From Escherichia coli O157:H7 str. 2011EL-2287 (GTDB taxonomy: Bacteria; Pseudomonadota; Gammaproteobacteria; Enterobacterales; Enterobacteriaceae), in NCBI GenBank assembly GCA_000614405.2, contig GCA_000614405.2_3612.1: 64,000 nt of DNA. One strand, given 5' to 3'. The notes under the pieces are model-generated. The model did no database searches, had not been told where the DNA came from, and saw nothing but the letters and a program-made list of their open reading frames with translations. A program made the translations under genes and the position numbers. Positions 13,146 to 22,744 of the stretch are shown piece after piece. Within the stretch, counting starts at the first letter, position 1. Every line of letters starts with the position of its first letter.

Positions 13146-13740
13146 TACTTGAAAATTCCTGGCATATCAAGTATAAGGGGGATTTCTAAAATGGATTTCC
13201 TCCTTTTGATATTTCACCGGGCCGGATATTTTAAAATTCTTAGAAAATCAGAAAATGGATCGAAAACTAAAATGGATTTTTCAGAGTAGGCGCGACAAGC
13301 TGAATAACTCATCCTATCGTTTGCACCATATTCCAGACCACCATTATAGATTTCCCGCACATGCTTACATCTCGCTACTAGAACTTCCTCCACTTACCCT
13401 TGACCTTTTATAGCAATAATCCAACCACTATCTTGAAGTTGCGGTGCAGCTTTCCAGGTACTCGATCTGTTTTTCGTTTCAAAGATTGAATTTTCTGAAA
13501 ATTTTTCTCGATAAATTTCTCAGTACTCGATCTGTTTTTCGTTTTCTGAATCGGATTTTCTGGAAATCGCTCCGGCTCTTGGCCTAAACTTTTTGGGGAC
13601 GAAATCGATTTTTCGTTTTCAGAAATGGATTTTTAAAATTTCTATATGGGAATATTTTAGTGGATACTATTTTATAGGAAATTGTTACGGAGGGTAATTA
13701 GCGTGCTAATTAAATTTATTAAATGCGAGGAGTTCTCATT
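13146..13740. repeat. ORF-free AT-rich region with iteron-like direct repeats (candidate replication origin or control region)
   Basis: AAAATGGAT(T) motif at least 4 times; 22-bp direct repeat GTACTCGATCTGTTTTTCGTTT twice (about 13459 and 13523); GATTTTCTGGAAA-type repeats; no ORF with SD. Confidence 0.5.
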
Positions 13741-13748
13741 TAGAATTT

Positions 13749-13766
13749 TGAATGATAATCATTCTC
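13749..13766 (+). promoter_or_regulatory. Fur-box-like operator 1
   Basis: TGAATGATAATCATTCTC, about 15/19 match to GATAATGATAATCATTATC consensus. Confidence 0.4.
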
Positions 13767-13865
13767 GTTTGCAGAATAACGGGCAGGCCCGGTGATTGTC
13801 TCCCGGCCCCTACTGCCCCGGCTTGTTATTATAGTAACACACAGGACAAAGAAAGCAAGAAGTTT

Positions 13866-13902
13866 TTGCATAAATTTTTAGACGATAATGATAATCGTTC
13901 TC
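13866..13902 (+). promoter_or_regulatory. sigma70-like promoter (TTGCAT-N18-GATAAT) overlapped by Fur-box-like operator 2
   Basis: GATAATGATAATCGTTCTC is 17/19 to Fur consensus and overlaps the -10 hexamer, the classic Fur-repressed architecture. Confidence 0.45.
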
Positions 13903-14164
13903 ATTTCATGCAGCGCCCATCCCCGGTGGTTGTCTCCCCCGTCACCGGTGCCTGCCGTCCTTTCGATAGGTATATTTTGCCACCTGGCGGGGCCGCTGTC
14001 AACACTTTTCAAAAAAAAAAATTTCTAACCTGATGCGCTGACCGCTGCAACCTGGCGGGGCCAGCCTGGCAGGGCCTAACTGACCAGGTAGGAGAGAATG
14101 AAGGCTTGCAAACCTGGTGGGCCTATGCTATAGGATAGGTAACAATTGAAGAGGAGGTACAAAA

Positions 14165-15094: not shown

Positions 15095-15151
15095 TTGACA
15101 CGCTGCAAAATTTAAGTAAACTAGACACAAAAGGCGGGAATGTTTCCCGCC
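15095..15151 (+). promoter_or_regulatory. sigma70-like promoter followed by leader stem-loop GGCGGGAATGTTTCCCGCC
   Basis: TTGACA-N16-TAAACT; 7-bp GC stem in leader; not followed by a U tract. Confidence 0.5.
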
Positions 15152-15170: not shown

Positions 15171-15575
15171 ATGAATAAGAACGTACGCCGCATCATGAAC
15201 GAACTGGCAAACGATGAAAAAATTATTGACATGCACTTAGTGAACATTTGCCGCCGTTGTGTAACCTATAACAACCGCGCCGCAAAAGCGCGTGAGATGA
15301 ACGCAAAAGGCACCTTAAAGCCCTTCCAGGTGGTGGTAAAGGCCATTAAAGATGTAGCTAATACGGCAAACCAGGTACAGGGGAACACCAACGAGAGTAC
15401 CAATATTGATCCGGCTTACATCATGAAACGGATCCGGACCTGCAAGAACAAAGAGCAAGTGTATAACGTCATAGACTGGTTGGATTCCATGGGCGACGTG
15501 GTTTATAATAGGTTTTCTGCAGCCATTGAGATCCAGCTAGACAGGTTGGACGGGAAAGTACTAAAAACTTATTGA
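15171..15575 (+). CDS. hypothetical protein
   Basis: ORF with SD AAAGGAAAAAG. Confidence 0.55.
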   Translation: MNKNVRRIMNELANDEKIIDMHLVNICRRCVTYNNRAAKAREMNAKGTLKPFQVVVKAIKDVANTANQVQGNTNESTNIDPAYIMKRIRTCKNKEQVYNVIDWLDSMGDVVYNRFSAAIEIQLDRLDGKVLKTY

Positions 15576-15577
15576 GT

Positions 15578-15622
15578 TTATTTTTAGATGGCCTTGACTC
15601 CAGGGCCATCGATAAAGTAAAC
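15578..15622 (+). repeat. about 45-bp intergenic repeat element, copy 1 (TTATTTTTAGATGGCCTTGACTCCAGGGCCATCxATAAAGTAAA)
   Basis: Near-identical copies at about 16197, 19942 and a divergent one at 16533; each directly follows a stop codon; contains imperfect hairpin and TTGACT hexamer. Confidence 0.6.
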
Positions 15623-15655
15623 TAATCTCAGTTAAGCGAAAAAGGGGGCTTTAAG

Positions 15656-15775
15656 ATGGGCACTACACGCCAATACACAAAGGTAACTATTATCGTCTGC
15701 GTTGTCGGTTACATCCTGGCGCAAATGTTAATGAGTAGCGCTAACAGTTTTGCAAAATTTTTCTTAAATTTTTAA
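15656..15775 (+). CDS. hypothetical small hydrophobic peptide (39 aa)
   Basis: ORF below cutoff; SD AAAGGGGG; hydrophobic core VTIIVCVVGYILAQML. Confidence 0.35.
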   Translation: MGTTRQYTKVTIIVCVVGYILAQMLMSSANSFAKFFLNF

Positions 15776-15854
15776 TTGACAAGCTAACTTAGATCGGTAT
15801 ACTTAAACCCGTAAACGGGAAAACTTCCCAGAACACACAAAAGGAGAAAACACC

Positions 15855-16196
15855 ATGACCACTATGACCGCCGCAGAAAAAGCTATTCAGGTTGCCGCAC
15901 TGAAAAAACAGATCGCAGACCTTGAGAACAAGATCGATACCTTTGAAATCGACGAGGACAAGTACGACGAAAACTATGATGAATGGTTAGACGAGATCTA
16001 CGGAGAAATCATGATCGGAAACATTTCTTTTCTTCCGTCGCGTATCCTCAAGGAGCTAGATCCTATCGCTTACCGCTGCGGATTTAGCGACTACATCGAC
16101 AGCCTGGATATTGAGGACGATGAAGAATACCAGGAATTACAGACAGAGTTAGAAGAAGCAAAAGAAGAGCTTGCGGAGCTGGAAGAAAACGAGTAA
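15855..16196 (+). CDS. hypothetical acidic protein
   Basis: ORF with SD AAGGAGAAAA and upstream TTGACA promoter plus hairpin. Confidence 0.55.
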   Translation: MTTMTAAEKAIQVAALKKQIADLENKIDTFEIDEDKYDENYDEWLDEIYGEIMIGNISFLPSRILKELDPIAYRCGFSDYIDSLDIEDDEEYQELQTELEEAKEELAELEENE

Positions 16197-16244
16197 GATT
16201 ATTTTTAGATGGCCTTGACTCCAGGGCCATCAATAAAGTAAACT
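16197..16244 (+). repeat. about 45-bp intergenic repeat element, copy 2
   Basis: See copy 1. Confidence 0.6.
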
Positions 16245-16285
16245 TTATACTGTTAACACTGAACTAATGCATAGGAGTTAAAACC

Positions 16286-16531
16286 ATGGCAGCACTAATC
16301 ACCAAATATTATGCCCCTACCAACACCAAAAGCGCCCGTATCATGGTAAAAGGCTTCGGACGTAAAAAGGTTTACACCTGGGATTATGCCTTAGACACGG
16401 AAGACAACTACACCAACGCGATGACAGATTTTATTAATGAGCTGAACACGCGGATCTTGACAAATTATAAAATTACCGATATTGCCTATATAGGGGAAGG
16501 CGGGATCTGTTTTGTCGGTATCGTCAAATAA
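16286..16531 (+). CDS. hypothetical protein
   Basis: ORF with SD AGGAG. Confidence 0.55.
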   Translation: MAALITKYYAPTNTKSARIMVKGFGRKKVYTWDYALDTEDNYTNAMTDFINELNTRILTNYKITDIAYIGEGGICFVGIVK

Positions 16532-16532
16532 G

Positions 16533-16580
16533 CTGTTTTTTCGGTGGTCCTGGTAGCAGGGCCATCTATAAAGATAGTTT
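16533..16580 (+). repeat. intergenic repeat element, divergent copy 3
   Basis: GGTGGTCCTGGTAGCAGGGCCATCTATAAAGATAG resembles copies 1, 2 and 4. Confidence 0.4.
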
Positions 16581-16606
16581 ATCAACACAATGAAAGGAGA
16601 AAGTAC

Positions 16607-16960
16607 ATGATCAGCGGGGCAAGTTTTATTATTGGCGCTATTGCTACGGCTTTAATTGTAAACAAGATCCAATCTAAAAACGAAAAAGAGAGCAACGCGC
16701 TCACAGAATACCCATTTTGGGTATTCAACGACAATGAAGACTACATTATCAAGTACAAGAATGAGAAGGGCGACCAGGTAACACCGCGACCGATCCCGGC
16801 TTACAAGATGCAAGAAACACTATACCGCCTAAAGGCTGGAGGCGCAAAAATCGTAGACTTTTGGGGATATGATTGCAAGGATCAGGAGGTTATAAAGCGC
16901 CGTATCCGGGCTATTCAGGCCAATATTGAAGTTAGCAAGGGGGGAATATATGAAGATTAA
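16607..16960 (+). CDS. hypothetical membrane-anchored protein
   Basis: ORF with SD AAAGGAGAAAG; N-terminal hydrophobic segment. Confidence 0.55.
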   Translation: MISGASFIIGAIATALIVNKIQSKNEKESNALTEYPFWVFNDNEDYIIKYKNEKGDQVTPRPIPAYKMQETLYRLKAGGAKIVDFWGYDCKDQEVIKRRIRAIQANIEVSKGGIYED

Positions 16961-17147
16961 TTTTGAGAAGATTGTAAAGCGATCTCATGATTCCGAAGAG
17001 CTGCCGGAACGACGCCAGCGTAACAATAAACTGAATAAGCCGAAAAGATTTGGGAAGATCTGGCGAAATCACTATGATCGCAAATTACCCAGCCTGCTTT
17101 TGGAACGTGAACGACAAGCGGAACGATACCGCCACAAAGACAAATAG
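16950..17147 (+). CDS. hypothetical basic protein
   Basis: ORF with SD AAGGGGGG. Confidence 0.45.
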   Translation: MKINFEKIVKRSHDSEELPERRQRNNKLNKPKRFGKIWRNHYDRKLPSLLLERERQAERYRHKDK

Positions 17148-17155
17148 CAACCAAC

Positions 17156-17182
17156 GCCCCGCCATTGTGCGGGGTTTTTTAT
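17156..17182 (+). terminator. rho-independent terminator
   Basis: GCCCCGC-loop-GCGGGG hairpin followed by TTTTTTAT. Confidence 0.7.
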
Positions 17183-17393
17183 TTCTATCCTACGAATAGC
17201 GCCCCTGGTTGGCCCCACAAACGCCACAAAAGCCCCTACCTATGCAATCCCCTTTATTAACCTGAAAACATCACCCAGGGCCGTTTTATGGTGTTAAAAA
17301 ATATCATTGACAGTGATTTTATTTAAAGCTTGACACCTTGGAATAGTCCGGATATACTAACCACATCAAAGCAAGAAGGAAGGAGTAAACGCC

Positions 17394-17654
17394 ATGCGTA
17401 AATTAAAAAATTTTGATAAAGTTGATGTTGTCCTGAATAATTTTTACTACTGCAATAACAAGGCCATTTGGTGGCGTGATAGTTCCACCGATAAAGTCAA
17501 GGCGCGCTTTCTCCAGGGGCACTGGCAAGGCCGTCCAGTGATTAAAATCATGGGGCAATTGGTAGCGTTTAAAAATTGCCGCCGTGTTGATGACGTTGAA
17601 GAGATTTTAAGCATTTTGCGCCACAATAATTTAAAAAATAGTGTTGACAAGTAA
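17394..17654 (+). CDS. hypothetical protein
   Basis: ORF with SD GAAGGAAGGAG; upstream TTGACA-N17-TATACT promoter. Confidence 0.55.
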   Translation: MRKLKNFDKVDVVLNNFYYCNNKAIWWRDSSTDKVKARFLQGHWQGRPVIKIMGQLVAFKNCRRVDDVEEILSILRHNNLKNSVDK

Positions 17655-17700
17655 ATCTCGATAAGTATACTTAAACACACAGGCGGGAAAACTTCCCGCC
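17644..17700 (+). promoter_or_regulatory. sigma70-like promoter followed by leader stem-loop GGCGGGAAAACTTCCCGCC
   Basis: TTGACA-N16-TATACT; GC hairpin near predicted transcript start. Confidence 0.55.
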
Positions 17701-17728
17701 ACTAACAAAGAAAATAGGAGAAAATATC

Positions 17729-18352
17729 ATGACCACCGTTAACATTACCACAGGTTACAATTTATCTTTCGACGTGCTGACCGATGAACAAAAAGAAAAA
17801 GCTATTGAAATGGTCCGCGAAAGAGAAGAACACAGCGGGGATAACTTTTTTGCAGAAAGTGTAATTGAAGACTATAAAGAACATATCTTTCCAGAGTATG
17901 GCCTTGAAGATACCAAGGTACATTGGTCCGGCTTTTGGTGCCAGGGCGACGGCGCGTCAATCAGTGCGGAAAACGTGGATTTAGAAAAATTCTTGCGTAA
18001 AGTCAAGTCTCTGACTAAATTCCGCTCAATTCGTCACTTGTTCGGCACAATGCACGATGGCGAGCTATCCGCAAGTGTTGAGCGTGATCCATATAGCCGC
18101 TATAGTCACGAAAATACTGTGAGCGGGTACATCGATACTACATGGCTAGACCTGACAGCCAAGCAAGAAAGTAAGGTTGAAGAGCTGGAAGAGTTGATCA
18201 CCGAGAACGTACGGGAACTATCCCGCAAGGTTTACGTAGACCTGGAGCAAGCTTATCTTGAACAATTTACTACCGAAAACCTGATCGGCCTTATCGAGGC
18301 CAATGATTGGCGGTTTGATGTGGATGAATATGGAGAGATGAGTTTTTCATAA
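17729..18352 (+). CDS. hypothetical protein
   Basis: 207-aa ORF with SD ATAGGAGAAAA. Confidence 0.6.
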   Translation: MTTVNITTGYNLSFDVLTDEQKEKAIEMVREREEHSGDNFFAESVIEDYKEHIFPEYGLEDTKVHWSGFWCQGDGASISAENVDLEKFLRKVKSLTKFRSIRHLFGTMHDGELSASVERDPYSRYSHENTVSGYIDTTWLDLTAKQESKVEELEELITENVRELSRKVYVDLEQAYLEQFTTENLIGLIEANDWRFDVDEYGEMSFS

Positions 18353-18442
18353 ATAAAGTGTTGCAATAATCTAAAAACCTGCTATATTAAAACTCAAGGG
18401 GCAAGACGTTTGCCCCCCACACAAAACAAAGAGGAAAACATC

Positions 18443-18823
18443 ATGAAAAACACTACTAAAGCTATTGACACCGTCATGTTTAACCTGGTTACCTTTCGCG
18501 AGGATATGAAAGATCTTCCACGTGAAACAGTGTGCGATCACATTGAAAACTATCGCAAACTAATCAAAGAGTTGCCTTTAAAACGTGATCAGTATGCGGC
18601 TAACGCCATGCTTAATGCCATGATCAAAAAGATGATCCAGTGTGATTTAACTCTGGCCTATGACTATGCGGGTGGTCGTTTTGCAGTATACAATCAGCCC
18701 GTGCCCGGTATGGGCACCACCGAAGAATTGCACGCGTTAAATCTGAAGCAAGATGTATGGGATAACATGCCCCGCGTGGTGGTGTGGGCAGAAAGCGGAA
18801 AGATTTACGGCGATAATTTTTAA
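18443..18823 (+). CDS. hypothetical protein
   Basis: ORF with SD AAGAGGAAAA. Confidence 0.55.
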   Translation: MKNTTKAIDTVMFNLVTFREDMKDLPRETVCDHIENYRKLIKELPLKRDQYAANAMLNAMIKKMIQCDLTLAYDYAGGRFAVYNQPVPGMGTTEELHALNLKQDVWDNMPRVVVWAESGKIYGDNF

Positions 18824-18887
18824 TCAGGTAACAGGCGGCATATTTGCCGCCTTATTGTTAAACAGAGTTGCAAAAGAGGTACATAGA

Positions 18888-19259
18888 ATGGAATTTATTA
18901 TTTTGGCTGTAGTAGTTGCCTTGTTCAACGCCTGGATAGCTGGCAAAATAGGTAGATCCGCTTTTCTATGGTTTGTTATATCTATTTTCCTGGGAGTGGT
19001 TGCAACCATTGTACTAGTTATCCTTGCAATTGTTGACAAGGATAATAATAAGAAGGGTAAAGTATTTTCCGACCTGTATGACGCCCAAACTTTTGTTAAC
19101 GCCTATTATAGTGATCTTCCGGTCTCCTTGCGCTGCAGCCTGGCGCAACAAGTTTTTGATGAGGCTAAAACCAGAGATCAAGCCCATGAGATATGTTTAA
19201 CTGAGGCGGATCGCCTATTTGAGAGGAATAGAAAATATGTGGGCCAGCCGTTTAAATAA
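18888..19259 (+). CDS. hypothetical membrane protein (two predicted TM helices)
   Basis: ORF with SD AAAGAGG; hydrophobic N-terminal half. Confidence 0.55.
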   Translation: MEFIILAVVVALFNAWIAGKIGRSAFLWFVISIFLGVVATIVLVILAIVDKDNNKKGKVFSDLYDAQTFVNAYYSDLPVSLRCSLAQQVFDEAKTRDQAHEICLTEADRLFERNRKYVGQPFK

Positions 19260-19482
19260 TACCACGTTAATTAATCCCTTTAATGAAGATTTGAAGCCAG
19301 CCGCCTGGCGTGATGGATTCAATAACGAACGCTTTATTTTCAGGCCTGATCTTGAGGAATTTTATAACAATGGATCGAACAACGACAGAGATAATTTTTC
19401 TTGTGATGTGCGTGGTGATGGTACTCCTGGGGGACATTGTAAACCACGTCACTACTACCAGGAGGAAAGGGGGAGACGATGA
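19237..19482 (+). CDS. hypothetical protein
   Basis: ORF with SD GAGAGGAA. Confidence 0.45.
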   Translation: MWASRLNNTTLINPFNEDLKPAAWRDGFNNERFIFRPDLEEFYNNGSNNDRDNFSCDVRGDGTPGGHCKPRHYYQEERGRR

Positions 19483-19598
19483 CAACCAAGGATAAGCCCC
19501 GCACCGATAAGGTGCGCCAGGTTATGGTATGGCTTGAGATCATCGCCCTTGAAATATTGTTAGGGGTAGGAATGTACTTTATTGCTATAAGTAACTGA
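19479..19598 (+). CDS. hypothetical small membrane peptide (39 aa)
   Basis: ORF below cutoff; SD GGAGGAAAGGGGGAG; ATGA overlap with upstream stop; hydrophobic C-terminal half. Confidence 0.4.
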   Translation: MTTKDKPRTDKVRQVMVWLEIIALEILLGVGMYFIAISN

Positions 19599-19602
19599 TA
19601 AC

Positions 19603-19630
19603 GCCCCCGATCATGGGGGCTTAACTTTTT
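19603..19630 (+). terminator. rho-independent terminator
   Basis: GCCCCCGA-loop-GGGGGC hairpin followed by T-rich tract. Confidence 0.6.
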
Positions 19631-19737
19631 CAAAAAATTTTTCTTCCAGGGTGTTGCAATCTGGTCCGCAATATGGATAATAACAATCAACGGGGAAACA
19701 TCCCCACCAACACAAAAACCAGAAAGGAGAAACAAAA

Positions 19738-19938
19738 ATGAGCAACAATATCCGCGTTATTAACTTCAAAAAAGAAGAAAAAATTGCCGTGCTGATTGAC
19801 GGTCAAGAAATCTTCAAGGGCGACTATGAAGATCATCAAACGGCGATTAGTATCACTCGCGTGATTGGTTACCATAATTTTTACCCCCAAGGCGCTGAGG
19901 CGGCGGTTAAACGAATCAAAGAGATTGTAGGCCTGTAA
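19738..19938 (+). CDS. hypothetical protein
   Basis: ORF with SD AAAGGAGAAA; upstream TTGCAA-N16-GATAAT promoter and GGGGAAACATCCCC hairpin. Confidence 0.55.
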   Translation: MSNNIRVINFKKEEKIAVLIDGQEIFKGDYEDHQTAISITRVIGYHNFYPQGAEAAVKRIKEIVGL

Positions 19939-19941
19939 AAT

Positions 19942-19988
19942 TTATTTTTAGATGGCCTTGACTCTAGGGCCATCAATAAAGTAAATTT
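19942..19988 (+). repeat. about 45-bp intergenic repeat element, copy 4
   Basis: See copy 1. Confidence 0.6.
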
Positions 19989-20031
19989 AAACCCTGTTAA
20001 AATACCACGCAGTTAACAAGGAGTGATAGAC

Positions 20032-20331
20032 ATGTTTATCCAGGCTAATAATCTTTATTTCTTTGATGGTCAGATCGTAGATGGTGTGGAAGTGGAGATC
20101 ACTGGGTGCCCTGGTGGTCAGGCTATGACTTTTCGGAATAATGCCTTTGATGATTCTCATATCGTTATGAGAATGGAAGTTACAAAGCTGGACGACAAGA
20201 AAACGCTCATTGACTATTCCGTGAAAGATCATCCAGACTACCACATGATCTATGGTGATTTGTGCATTGTTGACCGTGACAAGGTGGGCGGCATTGTGAT
20301 CGCTATTGTGAACGATGTTTTCTCTGTATAG
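20032..20331 (+). CDS. hypothetical protein
   Basis: ORF with SD AAGGAG before ATG 20032 (GTG 20023 alternative). Confidence 0.5.
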   Translation: MFIQANNLYFFDGQIVDGVEVEITGCPGGQAMTFRNNAFDDSHIVMRMEVTKLDDKKTLIDYSVKDHPDYHMIYGDLCIVDRDKVGGIVIAIVNDVFSV

Positions 20332-20389
20332 TTCCGGCAAATGATGCAAAATAAGGCCCCTAGCAGGGCCTGCAGCGATATAATCACAT

Positions 20390-20423
20390 AAAGGCCATGC
20401 GGTTGCATGGCCTTTATTATTTT
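20390..20423 (+). terminator. rho-independent terminator
   Basis: AAAGGCCATGC-GGTT-GCATGGCCTTT hairpin followed by ATTATTTT. Confidence 0.7.
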
Positions 20424-20552
20424 GGCGTTACAACGGCCTCCAAGGCGCTTAAAAATTTTTTAAAGAAGTACTTGCATCAAGCCCTACAATATGGATAATA
20501 GTACGTGTCAGGGGGCGGCCCCCAATCATTAACAGAAACAGGAGTTAAAACT

Positions 20553-22580: not shown

Positions 22581-22744
22581 TATACTTATTCCACGGCAGG
22601 CACCTGGCGACGGGGGAGACAATCACCGGGCCTGCCTGTCATATAAGAACTATAAAAACCGTTGACATCTGCCATGGGGTGGGGTAACATTTATCTTGAA
22701 GGGGCAAAAGTGCCCACACAACACCCAGGAGAGAGGAAAACATT

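Follow-up and report, generated by a model that had tools for sequence, protein, structure and literature searches.

A repeated element behind the stop codons of early genes

The stretch of DNA analysed here, referred to as the window, comprises 64,000 nucleotides of contig GCA_000614405.2_3612.1 from the assembly of Escherichia coli O157:H7 str. 2011EL-2287, and it carries four copies of a short intergenic repeat, the element under study, placed immediately behind the stop codons of phage early genes. Sequence comparison identifies the window as an rV5-like Vequintavirus, with 94-97% identity over the 8 kb around the element to Escherichia phage rV5 and to about 200 Vequintavirus relatives, and the matches titled 'Campylobacter phage' in the list of relatives are Vequintavirus by taxonomy as well. 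Phages of the rV5 type are widely used in O157 typing and in phage-therapy cocktails. Some 95% of their early region is 'hypothetical', and studies of its regulation are lacking; in the window it forms a block of small early genes, mostly unannotated, with every gene on the + strand.

An earlier note, made from the window alone, had described a nearly identical 45-bp element after stop codons and had offered as its function a 3' mRNA stabiliser or processing site, a weak promoter, or a recombination or cassette boundary like integron attC. The repetition was confirmed. GATGGCCTTGACTCCAGGGCCATC, a core of 24 nt, is found with one mismatch at most at 15587, 16208 and 19951, where shuffled sequences lead one to expect 0.00 matches, and a repeat search returned a single family of four copies at 15575-15623, 16196-16244, 16531-16579 and 19939-19987, the copy at 16531 being 67% identical. 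The repeat unit obtained in this search is 49 nt long and not 45. A covariance model built from the four window copies (R1) and run over the 64-kb window with filters off retrieved these four copies only (E about 1e-14 to 1e-16), and over the complete 137,947-bp genome of rV5 it again retrieved only four copies, all of them orthologous.

All four copies lie on the sense strand of early genes. Copy 1 (15575-15623, +; R1 score 83.4 bits; folding energy -26.2 kcal/mol, z -6.6) follows the gene at 15171-15575, a homologue of rV5 ORF194, and copy 2 (16196-16244, +; 82.6 bits; -21.5 kcal/mol, z -5.1) follows the gene at 15855-16196, the ORF192 homologue. Copy 3 (16531-16579, +; 74.3 bits; -28.2 kcal/mol, z -7.1) stands after the gene at 16286-16531 (ORF191 homologue) and copy 4 (19939-19987, +; 80.3 bits; -21.5 kcal/mol, z -5.6) after the gene at 19738-19938 (ORF179 homologue). 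The adjoining stop codons are TGA at 15573-15575 and TAA at 16194-16196, 16529-16531 and 19936-19938; the first base of copies 1-3 is the last base of the stop codon, and copy 4 begins one base later.

Folded as sense RNA, each copy has two stems of 10 bp, a lower and an upper one, which are separated by an internal loop of 2 nt (5' side) and 3 nt (3' side), and it is capped by a tetraloop. In copy 1 (+ strand) the lower stem pairs 15575-15584 with 15614-15623 and the upper stem 15587-15596 with 15601-15610, the internal loop being formed by 15585-15586 and 15611-15613 and the tetraloop ACUC by 15597-15600; copy 2 has the same anatomy, and copy 3 carries the loop GUAG. The upper stem is G/C-rich, GAUGGCCUUG/CAGGGCCAUC, with one G.U pair. 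The lower stem is made of A/U pairs, the U-rich 5' flank UUUAUUUU pairing with the A-rich 3' flank AAAGUAAA. A hairpin had thus been rightly suspected, but instead of the imperfect GGCC...GGCC form proposed for it we find the 10-bp upper stem stacked on a 10-bp A/U lower stem. Folding energies lie between -21.5 and -28.2 kcal/mol (z-scores relative to shuffles between -5.1 and -7.1), and the most stable copy is copy 3, the most divergent one. The earlier note was correct in calling this copy divergent in sequence, yet its entire two-stem fold is preserved through compensatory and wobble changes, while it contains no match to a -35 or -10 hexamer. The antisense strand folds much worse than the sense strand because the G.U pairs turn into A-C mismatches, and with DNA parameters the bipartite fold of copy 3 is lost on both strands.

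A G/C-rich hairpin located after genes might be read as an intrinsic transcription terminator, and copies 1, 2 and 4 also contain an ATG...TAA frame that could represent a 10-codon mini-ORF (ATG GCC TTG ACT CCA GGG CCA TCN ATA AAG TAA, MALTPGPSIK) in which the variable N falls on the wobble position of the Ser codon. Both readings appear extremely improbable to us and both were rejected. The hairpin is followed by (G/A)AUAAAGUAAA and has no 3' U-run on either strand; both strands are U-rich 5' and A-rich 3' of the stem, the reverse of a terminator, and a terminator scan passed over the element but flagged 17156, 18833, 19603 and 20388. The site at 17156 is a contrast case, which displays the form of a genuine terminator in the same region. 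The mini-ORF lacks a Shine-Dalgarno sequence, a 1-nt insertion at site 4 of phage WM and loop indels elsewhere disrupt its frame, and copy 3 has neither the ATG nor an in-frame stop at that place.

Conservation of the fold among Vequintavirus genomes

The element was present when related genomes were searched, as the earlier note had suggested, and its four sites are orthologous in all the relatives collected. The comparative set comprised rV5, SophiaRose, I29, V18, HMD-6, WM, magaca, Gotham, Aya, A147 and ECP32 together with several IMG/VR and metagenome contigs. An IMG/VR scan with a pattern for the conserved 3' half (14 specified bases) gave chance matches, except for one 137-kb Vequintavirus contig; a protein-anchored IMG/VR search yielded two close relatives only, and a stricter pattern run on metagenomes added a handful of further rV5-like contigs.

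The resulting alignment holds 65 copies (45 of them distinct) from 21 sources. Pairing is observed in 98.4% of its cells; shifting the 3' partners by 1-3 columns lowers this share to 35-55%. Four pairs of the lower stem have changed on both sides (G-C/A-U/G.U, U-A/C-G, U-A/G.U/A-U and A-U/U-A), and five pairs of the upper stem vary on one side only, each time in a wobble-compatible manner. The main place of sequence variation is the tetraloop, which reads ACTC, ACTT, ACAC, ACCC, ACGC, ATTC, ACC or ATAAC at sites 1, 2 and 4 and GTAG, GTGG, GTTG, GCTG or GTAA at site 3; indels of 1 nt are found in the tetraloop and in the internal loop. Variation and indels that fall in loops, combined with compensated stems, are the signature of a structured RNA that is read from the + strand.

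One might also suppose that such conservation reflects an operator for a sequence-specific RNA-binding protein, either of the phage or a host protein other than RNase III, which would co-regulate the four early genes. The 3' half, CAGGGCCAUC-N-AUAAAG, is indeed identical at all four window sites while the 5' arm varies. The identity of copies 1, 2 and 4 is however accounted for by gene conversion, the loops ACTT and ACAC recurring across sites and genomes, and that three wobble-compatible changes should all fall in one arm is not significant, the chance being about 1 in 8. Moreover, the Shine-Dalgarno sequences are 25-40 nt distant and remain unoccluded, and no candidate protein emerged, the flanking ORFs being without family except for one homologue of T7 gp1.1. 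We consider an operator of this kind very unlikely.

The element gave no match near the gathering score in Rfam and is not annotated in the rV5 record; the words repeat, hairpin and intergenic are absent from the rV5 genome paper (PMC3606486). A BLAST search of the element against 5,426 complete E. coli genomes returned no match, and it is therefore not a repeat borrowed from the host. Neither were there matches to the element in phi92 or in the phAPEC8-like phage ESCO25. We conclude that these four sense-strand RNA hairpins form a family that is specific to the genus and has not been described before.

Likeness to the RNase III sites of bacteriophage T7

Repeated, sequence-similar intergenic hairpins of about 50 nt are also found in the mRNA that T7 makes in E. 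coli, where they are the RNase III sites R0.3, R0.5, R1, R1.1 and R1.3 and the late sites. The five early sites were located at T7 positions 890, 1468, 3138, 5887 and 6450, which we take to be those of Dunn and Studier 1983; all five positions fall inside the expected intergenic gaps and share a common sequence, the sites being a family of similar sequences themselves. They fold into an upper stem of 9-10 bp with a loop of 4-5 nt, a 4x5 internal loop and a lower stem of 8-9 bp. The element shares with the T7 sites a G/C-rich upper stem of about 10 bp, a loop of 4-5 nt, an asymmetric internal loop and an A/U-rich lower stem of 8-10 bp. Its internal loop lies 10 bp below the tetraloop, the same place as in R0.3, R0.5, R1 and R1.1, and in copies 1, 2 and 4 the U-A and U.G pairs beneath the loop-closing pair would correspond to those of R1.1. 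A stop codon inside the lower stem is likewise possible in T7, that of gene 0.4 lying within the lower stem of R0.5. In contrast, there is no evident sequence homology between the two families, the internal loop of T7 is 4x5 and that of the element 2x3, and the element occupies four sites within 4.4 kb of an unrelated 138-kb myovirus, where copies are held 92-96% identical by gene conversion and where its cleavage is a prediction.

This likeness could be quantified with a second covariance model (R2) built from the five T7 early sites alone and run over both strands of the window (128 kb search space, filters off). Its five best matches were copy 4 (28.5 bits, E 3e-4), copy 1 (27.2 bits), copy 2 (22.0 bits), a hairpin at 20371-20432 (22.0 bits) and copy 3 (21.7 bits); these E-values are rough, and the coincidence of the top ranks with the four copies does not depend on them. 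The alignments to the element copies are full-length, stem to stem and loop to loop. As a positive control, R2 was run over the remaining 33 kb of T7, where it recovered late sites that had no part in its construction, R4.7 (44.7 bits), R18.5 (43.9 bits), R6.5 (28.6 bits) and, weakly, R3.8 (13.9 bits), and missed R13. The negative control, 67 kb of early-region DNA of phi92 and ESCO25, gave no match at E<=1. The element thus scores like a mid-range genuine T7 RNase III site. A scan of the whole window for further two-turn hairpins was uninformative, returning 156 of them, mostly in coding regions.

RNase III substrates typically span two helical turns (Pertzev and Nicholson, PMC1540722; PMC6212723), and in vivo the E. 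coli enzyme preferentially cleaves intergenic regions within transcripts (PMC6212723). Two turns, about 20-22 bp, are provided by the coaxial 10 + 10 bp stems in four out of four copies. Internal loops may confine cleavage to one phosphodiester, leaving a 3' hairpin that is protective against 3'-5' exonucleases, and the optimal distal box is UA/UG, whereas position 2 of the proximal box is canonically A-U and a G-C pair there blocks binding (PMC1540722). An asymmetric internal loop, of 2 nt and 3 nt, separates the stems of the element. In order to place these boxes, we reconstructed the register from the text of PMC1540722, whose numbering (U12:G27, C13:G26, A9:U30) fits T7 R1.1 as AAGGUCAUUC-GCAA-GAGUGGCCUU. 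In this reconstructed register, the distal box of copies 1, 2 and 4 would be made of U26-A33 and U25.G34, position 2 of their proximal box would be A19-U40, and the internal loop of the element begins at the same point as that of R1.1. Alignment to the T7 model, combined with the cut of R1.1, which is presumably UUUAU/GAU (slash at the cut), predicts that the element would be cleaved after the conserved A-U of the 3' internal loop, GGCCAUC-N-A-U/AAAG, that is on the + strand at 15613/15614, 16234/16235, 16569/16570 and 19977/19978 in copies 1, 2, 3 and 4.

Among the functions offered in the earlier note, a 3' mRNA stabiliser or processing site is the best supported, because the element is a covarying sense-strand RNA structure that matches the T7 RNase III profile. 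The reading that we favour, somewhat above even chances in our judgement, is that the element is a T7-type signal for RNase III processing and 3' stabilisation in early operons. It would act in cis as an RNA signal within early polycistronic mRNAs synthesised by host RNA polymerase. The hairpin, whose first base is the last base of the stop codon, would form once the upstream gene has been translated, and host RNase III would then bind its coaxial 10+10-bp helix. Because of the internal loop, the 3' strand alone would be cut, so that the upstream mRNA would be left with a terminal 10-bp G/C hairpin shielding it from 3'-5' exonucleases and the downstream cistron would be freed as an RNA of its own with a new 5' end. 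A cut between cistrons would thereby give neighbouring genes separate stabilities. If this is true, an unrelated large myovirus shares with T7 the strategy of cleaving its early polycistronic mRNA into stable pieces, at four precisely predicted positions, and one would understand why some early genes have no promoter module of their own. We see in this a helpful annotation and a hypothesis that can be put to the test; the element would be a further instance of a signal type already known, and no new principle is involved.

Several observations weigh against RNase III processing. In the reconstructed register, copy 3 has a C-G pair in place of the U.G of the distal box and a G.U pair at position 2 of the proximal box; both changes weaken RNase III binding in a minimal substrate (PMC1540722), and copy 3 may thus be a weaker substrate. 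The smaller 2x3 internal loop could possibly lead to double-strand cleavage or to no cleavage. At site 1 of phage Gotham (MT682716; L167 6501-6551) the upper stem has lost most of its 3' arm through a 5-nt deletion (GGGCC); either the copy has decayed naturally or the sequence contains an error, and, if the deletion is real, copy 1 is dispensable in that phage. Our literature search found neither transcript ends nor cleavage data for any Vequintavirus. With only four sites in a 138-kb genome, the element also differs from the genome-wide strategy of T7. It is also to be noted that the T7 coordinates were checked only by their intergenic position and shared sequence, that the R2 scores of the element are moderate and their E-values rough, that a profile of two-stem hairpins may favour any clean hairpin of such shape, and that the match at 20371-20432, among the five best, resembles an ordinary terminator.

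A hairpin that RNase III leaves uncut could serve the same genes passively. REP elements are intergenic hairpins that act as RNA and protect upstream mRNA, and a REP element located no further than about 15 nt from a stop codon reportedly lowers expression. In a passive role of this type, the element would block 3'-5' exonucleases once the mRNA has been cleaved or terminated further downstream and, since it starts at the stop codon, might also slow terminating ribosomes, tuning the output of the upstream gene. A stable, conserved sense-strand hairpin right at stop codons within operons agrees with it, and the REP/BIME sequences of E. coli are similarly repeated imperfect palindromes just past stop codons inside operons. 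An exonuclease barrier would nevertheless require the G/C upper stem alone, whereas four compensatory pairs preserve the weak A/U lower stem too, which extends the helix to two turns with the internal loop at the T7 position, an architecture typical of RNase III substrates. REP/BIME sequences also differ in occurring in pairs or clusters, the element being a single hairpin that is phage-specific and has no sequence match in the 5,426 E. coli genomes. We regard a purely passive hairpin as rather unlikely.

More speculatively, the four hairpins might be more than sites for host RNase III and constitute a small phage-specific post-transcriptional regulon, in which a factor encoded or modified by the phage reads the invariant 3' half (CAGGGCCAUC-N-AUAAAG) and times the expression of a few early genes; they might also serve as a dedicated exchange point for early-gene cassettes and may have been acquired with the T7 gp1.1-like gene of the same operon. 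To this proposal we attach little probability, slightly above that of the operator considered earlier.

Two features of the region touch on T7 in their own right. A Pfam search of eight flanking ORFs gave a T7 gp1.1-family match for the ORF at 16926-17147 only (73 aa, homologue of rV5 ORF189; PF08200 'Bacteriophage 1.1 protein', E 3.3e-11, above the curated cut-off). This homologue of T7 gene 1.1 lies in the same operon as copies 2 and 3, and gene 1.1 of T7 is located directly downstream of the R1.1 RNase III site. The hairpin at 20371-20432, after the gene at 20032-20331, is a perfect 13-bp helix, AUAAAGGCCAUGC-GGUU-GCAUGGCCUUUAU, followed by UAUUUUGG. It was flagged by the terminator scan and has GGCCUUUAU in common with the T7 sites, and it may be a terminator, an RNase III site, or both.

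Promoters, recombination and neighbouring features

Every copy is preceded by a stop codon and followed by the next Shine-Dalgarno sequence, and no terminator separates it from the sigma-70-like promoter upstream; the transcripts themselves we infer. A promoter with a 5' GC stem-loop at 15095-15151 (+; TTGACA-16-TAAACT, 10/12 sigma-70-like; hairpin at 15133-15151) probably drives the transcript holding the gene at 15171-15575 and copy 1. The strong early promoter P192 with its 5' stem-loop GGGAAAACUUCCC at 15776-15841 (+; TTGACA-16-TATACT, 11/12), which is annotated in rV5 and was also found here as a repeat family, probably drives the transcript holding copies 2 and 3; their operon is closed by the intrinsic terminator at 17156-17182 (+; GCCCCGCC...GCGGGGT then TTTTTTATTT). 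A promoter-like site with a 5' stem-loop at 19654-19711 (+; TTGCAA-16-GATAAT) precedes the gene at 19738-19938 and copy 4. Three of the four copies come after the first gene behind a module of promoter and 5' stem-loop (15095, 15776, 19654), and the gene after each of the four has a Shine-Dalgarno sequence but lacks a strong promoter belonging to it. In phi92 and the phAPEC8-like phages, which make up the sister subfamily, nearly all early intergenic gaps of 80-90 nt are modules of promoter and 5' stem-loop. The early mRNAs of the phage are evidently equipped with 5' stabilising hairpins, and a processing site leaving a 3' hairpin fits the same economy.

These modules deserve description in themselves. 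The early sigma-70 promoters at 15095-15151, 15776-15841, 17644-17709, 18361-18419 and 19654-19711 are each followed, 10-20 nt downstream, by a short G/C hairpin of the GGGAAAACUUCCC type, which precedes the Shine-Dalgarno sequence as a 5'-terminal stem-loop on the mRNA. The module TTGACA-N17-TAtAaT plus GGGCGG...CCGCC occupies almost all intergenic gaps in the early regions of phi92 and the phAPEC8-like phages. Such modules resemble the PeSL (promoter-early stem-loop) cassettes of T4-type phages.

PeSLs (Arbiol et al. 2010, PMC2839356; Comeau et al. 2014, PMC4122927) offer the most serious alternative for the element itself, albeit one that we think has a clearly smaller chance than RNase III processing. 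As a PeSL-like composite, copies 1, 2 and 4 would each be a weak sigma-70 promoter re-initiating transcription for the downstream gene, and the overlapping stem-loop would attenuate read-through from upstream. These three copies contain a T-rich, UP-like tract and TTGACT-N18-TAAACT (TAAATT in copy 4). At sites 1, 2 and 4 almost every copy retains TTGAC, with T, A, C or G as the sixth base, as expected of a -35 hexamer, and at site 4 of HMD-6 a loop deletion and an internal-loop insertion bring the spacer back to 18 nt. The general layout is equal to that of PeSLs, which are repeated intergenic cassettes in a plastic early-gene region that start at the upstream stop codon in an A/T-rich tract, carry a G.U-containing stem-loop overlapping the -35/-10-like hexamers and lead to a Shine-Dalgarno sequence; in the sister subfamilies, the equivalent intergenic gaps are promoter plus stem-loop modules. 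The Gotham record labels sites 2 and 4 'promoter predicted by PhagePromoter', and caution is thus due in annotation, since software now labels these sites promoters.

The promoter match is nevertheless 9/12 with a non-optimal 18-bp spacer, where the real early promoters of the region reach 11/12 with spacers of 16-17 bp and PeSL promoters are near-consensus and shown to be strong, and matches of 9/12 quality were observed 20 times in the region against 11.5 expected by chance. Relatives exhibit spacers of 19-20 bp and the variants TTTACT and TTGATT. Copy 3 is without either hexamer, and yet its full fold is preserved in every genome by compensatory changes. Position five of the putative -10 (C/T) varies in concert with the base beside the stop codon (G/A) because the two pair in the RNA, a covariation that a promoter does not explain. 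In addition, a hairpin without a 3' U-run is not a classical attenuator. The short G-run/C-run hairpins of PeSLs were reported as terminators and number about 50 per genome, whereas the element is a two-turn bipartite helix with lower-stem covariation in four copies. The weak promoter of the earlier note can be retained as a sequence match in three copies. It is not the common function, because copy 3 has no match and the spacing is wrong in some relatives, although promoter activity might still be an additional property of these three copies.

The copies have also recombined. In magaca (L135), ECP32 (L170) and contig L122, a segment of 621 bp corresponding to 15624-16244 (+) of the window is absent; it comprises a small ORF (15656-15775), P192, the gene at 15855-16196 and one repeat copy, in rV5 terms ORF193-P192-ORF192. 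These three genomes retain one hybrid copy, whose left flank is that of copy 1 and whose right flank is that of copy 2. In phiWec189 the element was found by BLAST in two places only. Furthermore, the derived loop variants ACTT and ACAC and one lower-stem variant recur at different sites in different genomes, in V18 at sites 1 and 2, which indicates gene conversion among the copies; conversion explains why copies 1, 2 and 4 are 92-96% identical. In T4-type phages, recombination between flanking PeSLs deletes the enclosed gene or genes and one chimeric repeat stays (PMC2839356, PMC4122927). The loss of the 621-bp segment looks like the same ordinary homologous recombination between direct repeats, and the PeSL idea thereby reaches beyond T4-type phages. 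Regulatory repeats would in such variants double as breakpoints of gene loss in a plastic early region. We regard recombination as a by-product of near-identical repeats in a recombination-proficient phage and not as a selected function.

The presence or absence of this segment, with a single hybrid copy left behind, would also be expected if mobile gene cassettes were marked by a site-specific recombination site at the level of DNA, of the attC type or another, and attC sites are similarly imperfect inverted repeats at the 3' end of genes, one variable segment lying between two copies here. The loss of the segment bears out that part of the earlier suggestion; an integron-like site-specific system does not follow from it, and we give this explanation hardly any credence. 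Only one such polymorphism was found. The RNA-specific fold fails in copy 3 as single-stranded DNA on either strand, no integrase or recombinase is mentioned in the text of the rV5 paper, and homologous recombination between 49-bp repeats is sufficient, as has been argued for PeSLs. The core sites of attC have the consensus GTTRRRY and RYYYAAC. Such core sites (R''/L''-L'/R') were unmatched in the sequence of the element.

What looked like cassette swaps downstream of site 4 and, in contig L123, of site 1 proved to be short patches of divergent 5'-UTR beside homologous genes. The 25-40 nt from the element to the next Shine-Dalgarno sequence are far more divergent between genomes than either the element or the neighbouring genes, and two unrelated versions of this 5'-UTR patch exist after site 4 (19988-20031 of the window versus L131 7427-7468; L123 7345-7390). 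The hypervariable patch coincides with the predicted processed 5' end.

Upstream of the early gene block, about 1 kb (13150-14160) is non-coding. It contains three direct repeats of about 52 nt at 13451-13641, spaced by 65-74 nt, as well as repeats of AAAATGGATTT. A Fur-box-like sequence, GATAATGATAATCGTTCTC, is found at 13884-13902 with 2 mismatches to what we take to be the E. coli consensus (0.02 expected by chance), and a second, weaker match lies near 13750. Analogous triple repeats with GATAATCATTCTCATT palindromes are present in phi92 (L137:17999-18336) and ESCO25 (L136:12214-12551). The region at 13150-14160 could be an origin or packaging region, or could exert iron-responsive control of early transcription. 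Finally, a G/C-rich repeat of about 40 nt, GGCAGGCCCGGTGATTGTCTCCC(CCGTC.CC.GGTGCCTGCC), occurs in three copies, two of them in this non-coding region (13780-13830 and 13915-13960, both +) and one on the opposite strand in an intergenic gap near 22.6 kb (22585-22648, -). It has no Rfam match and forms a strong hairpin of -26 to -30 kcal/mol in a 64-nt scan.

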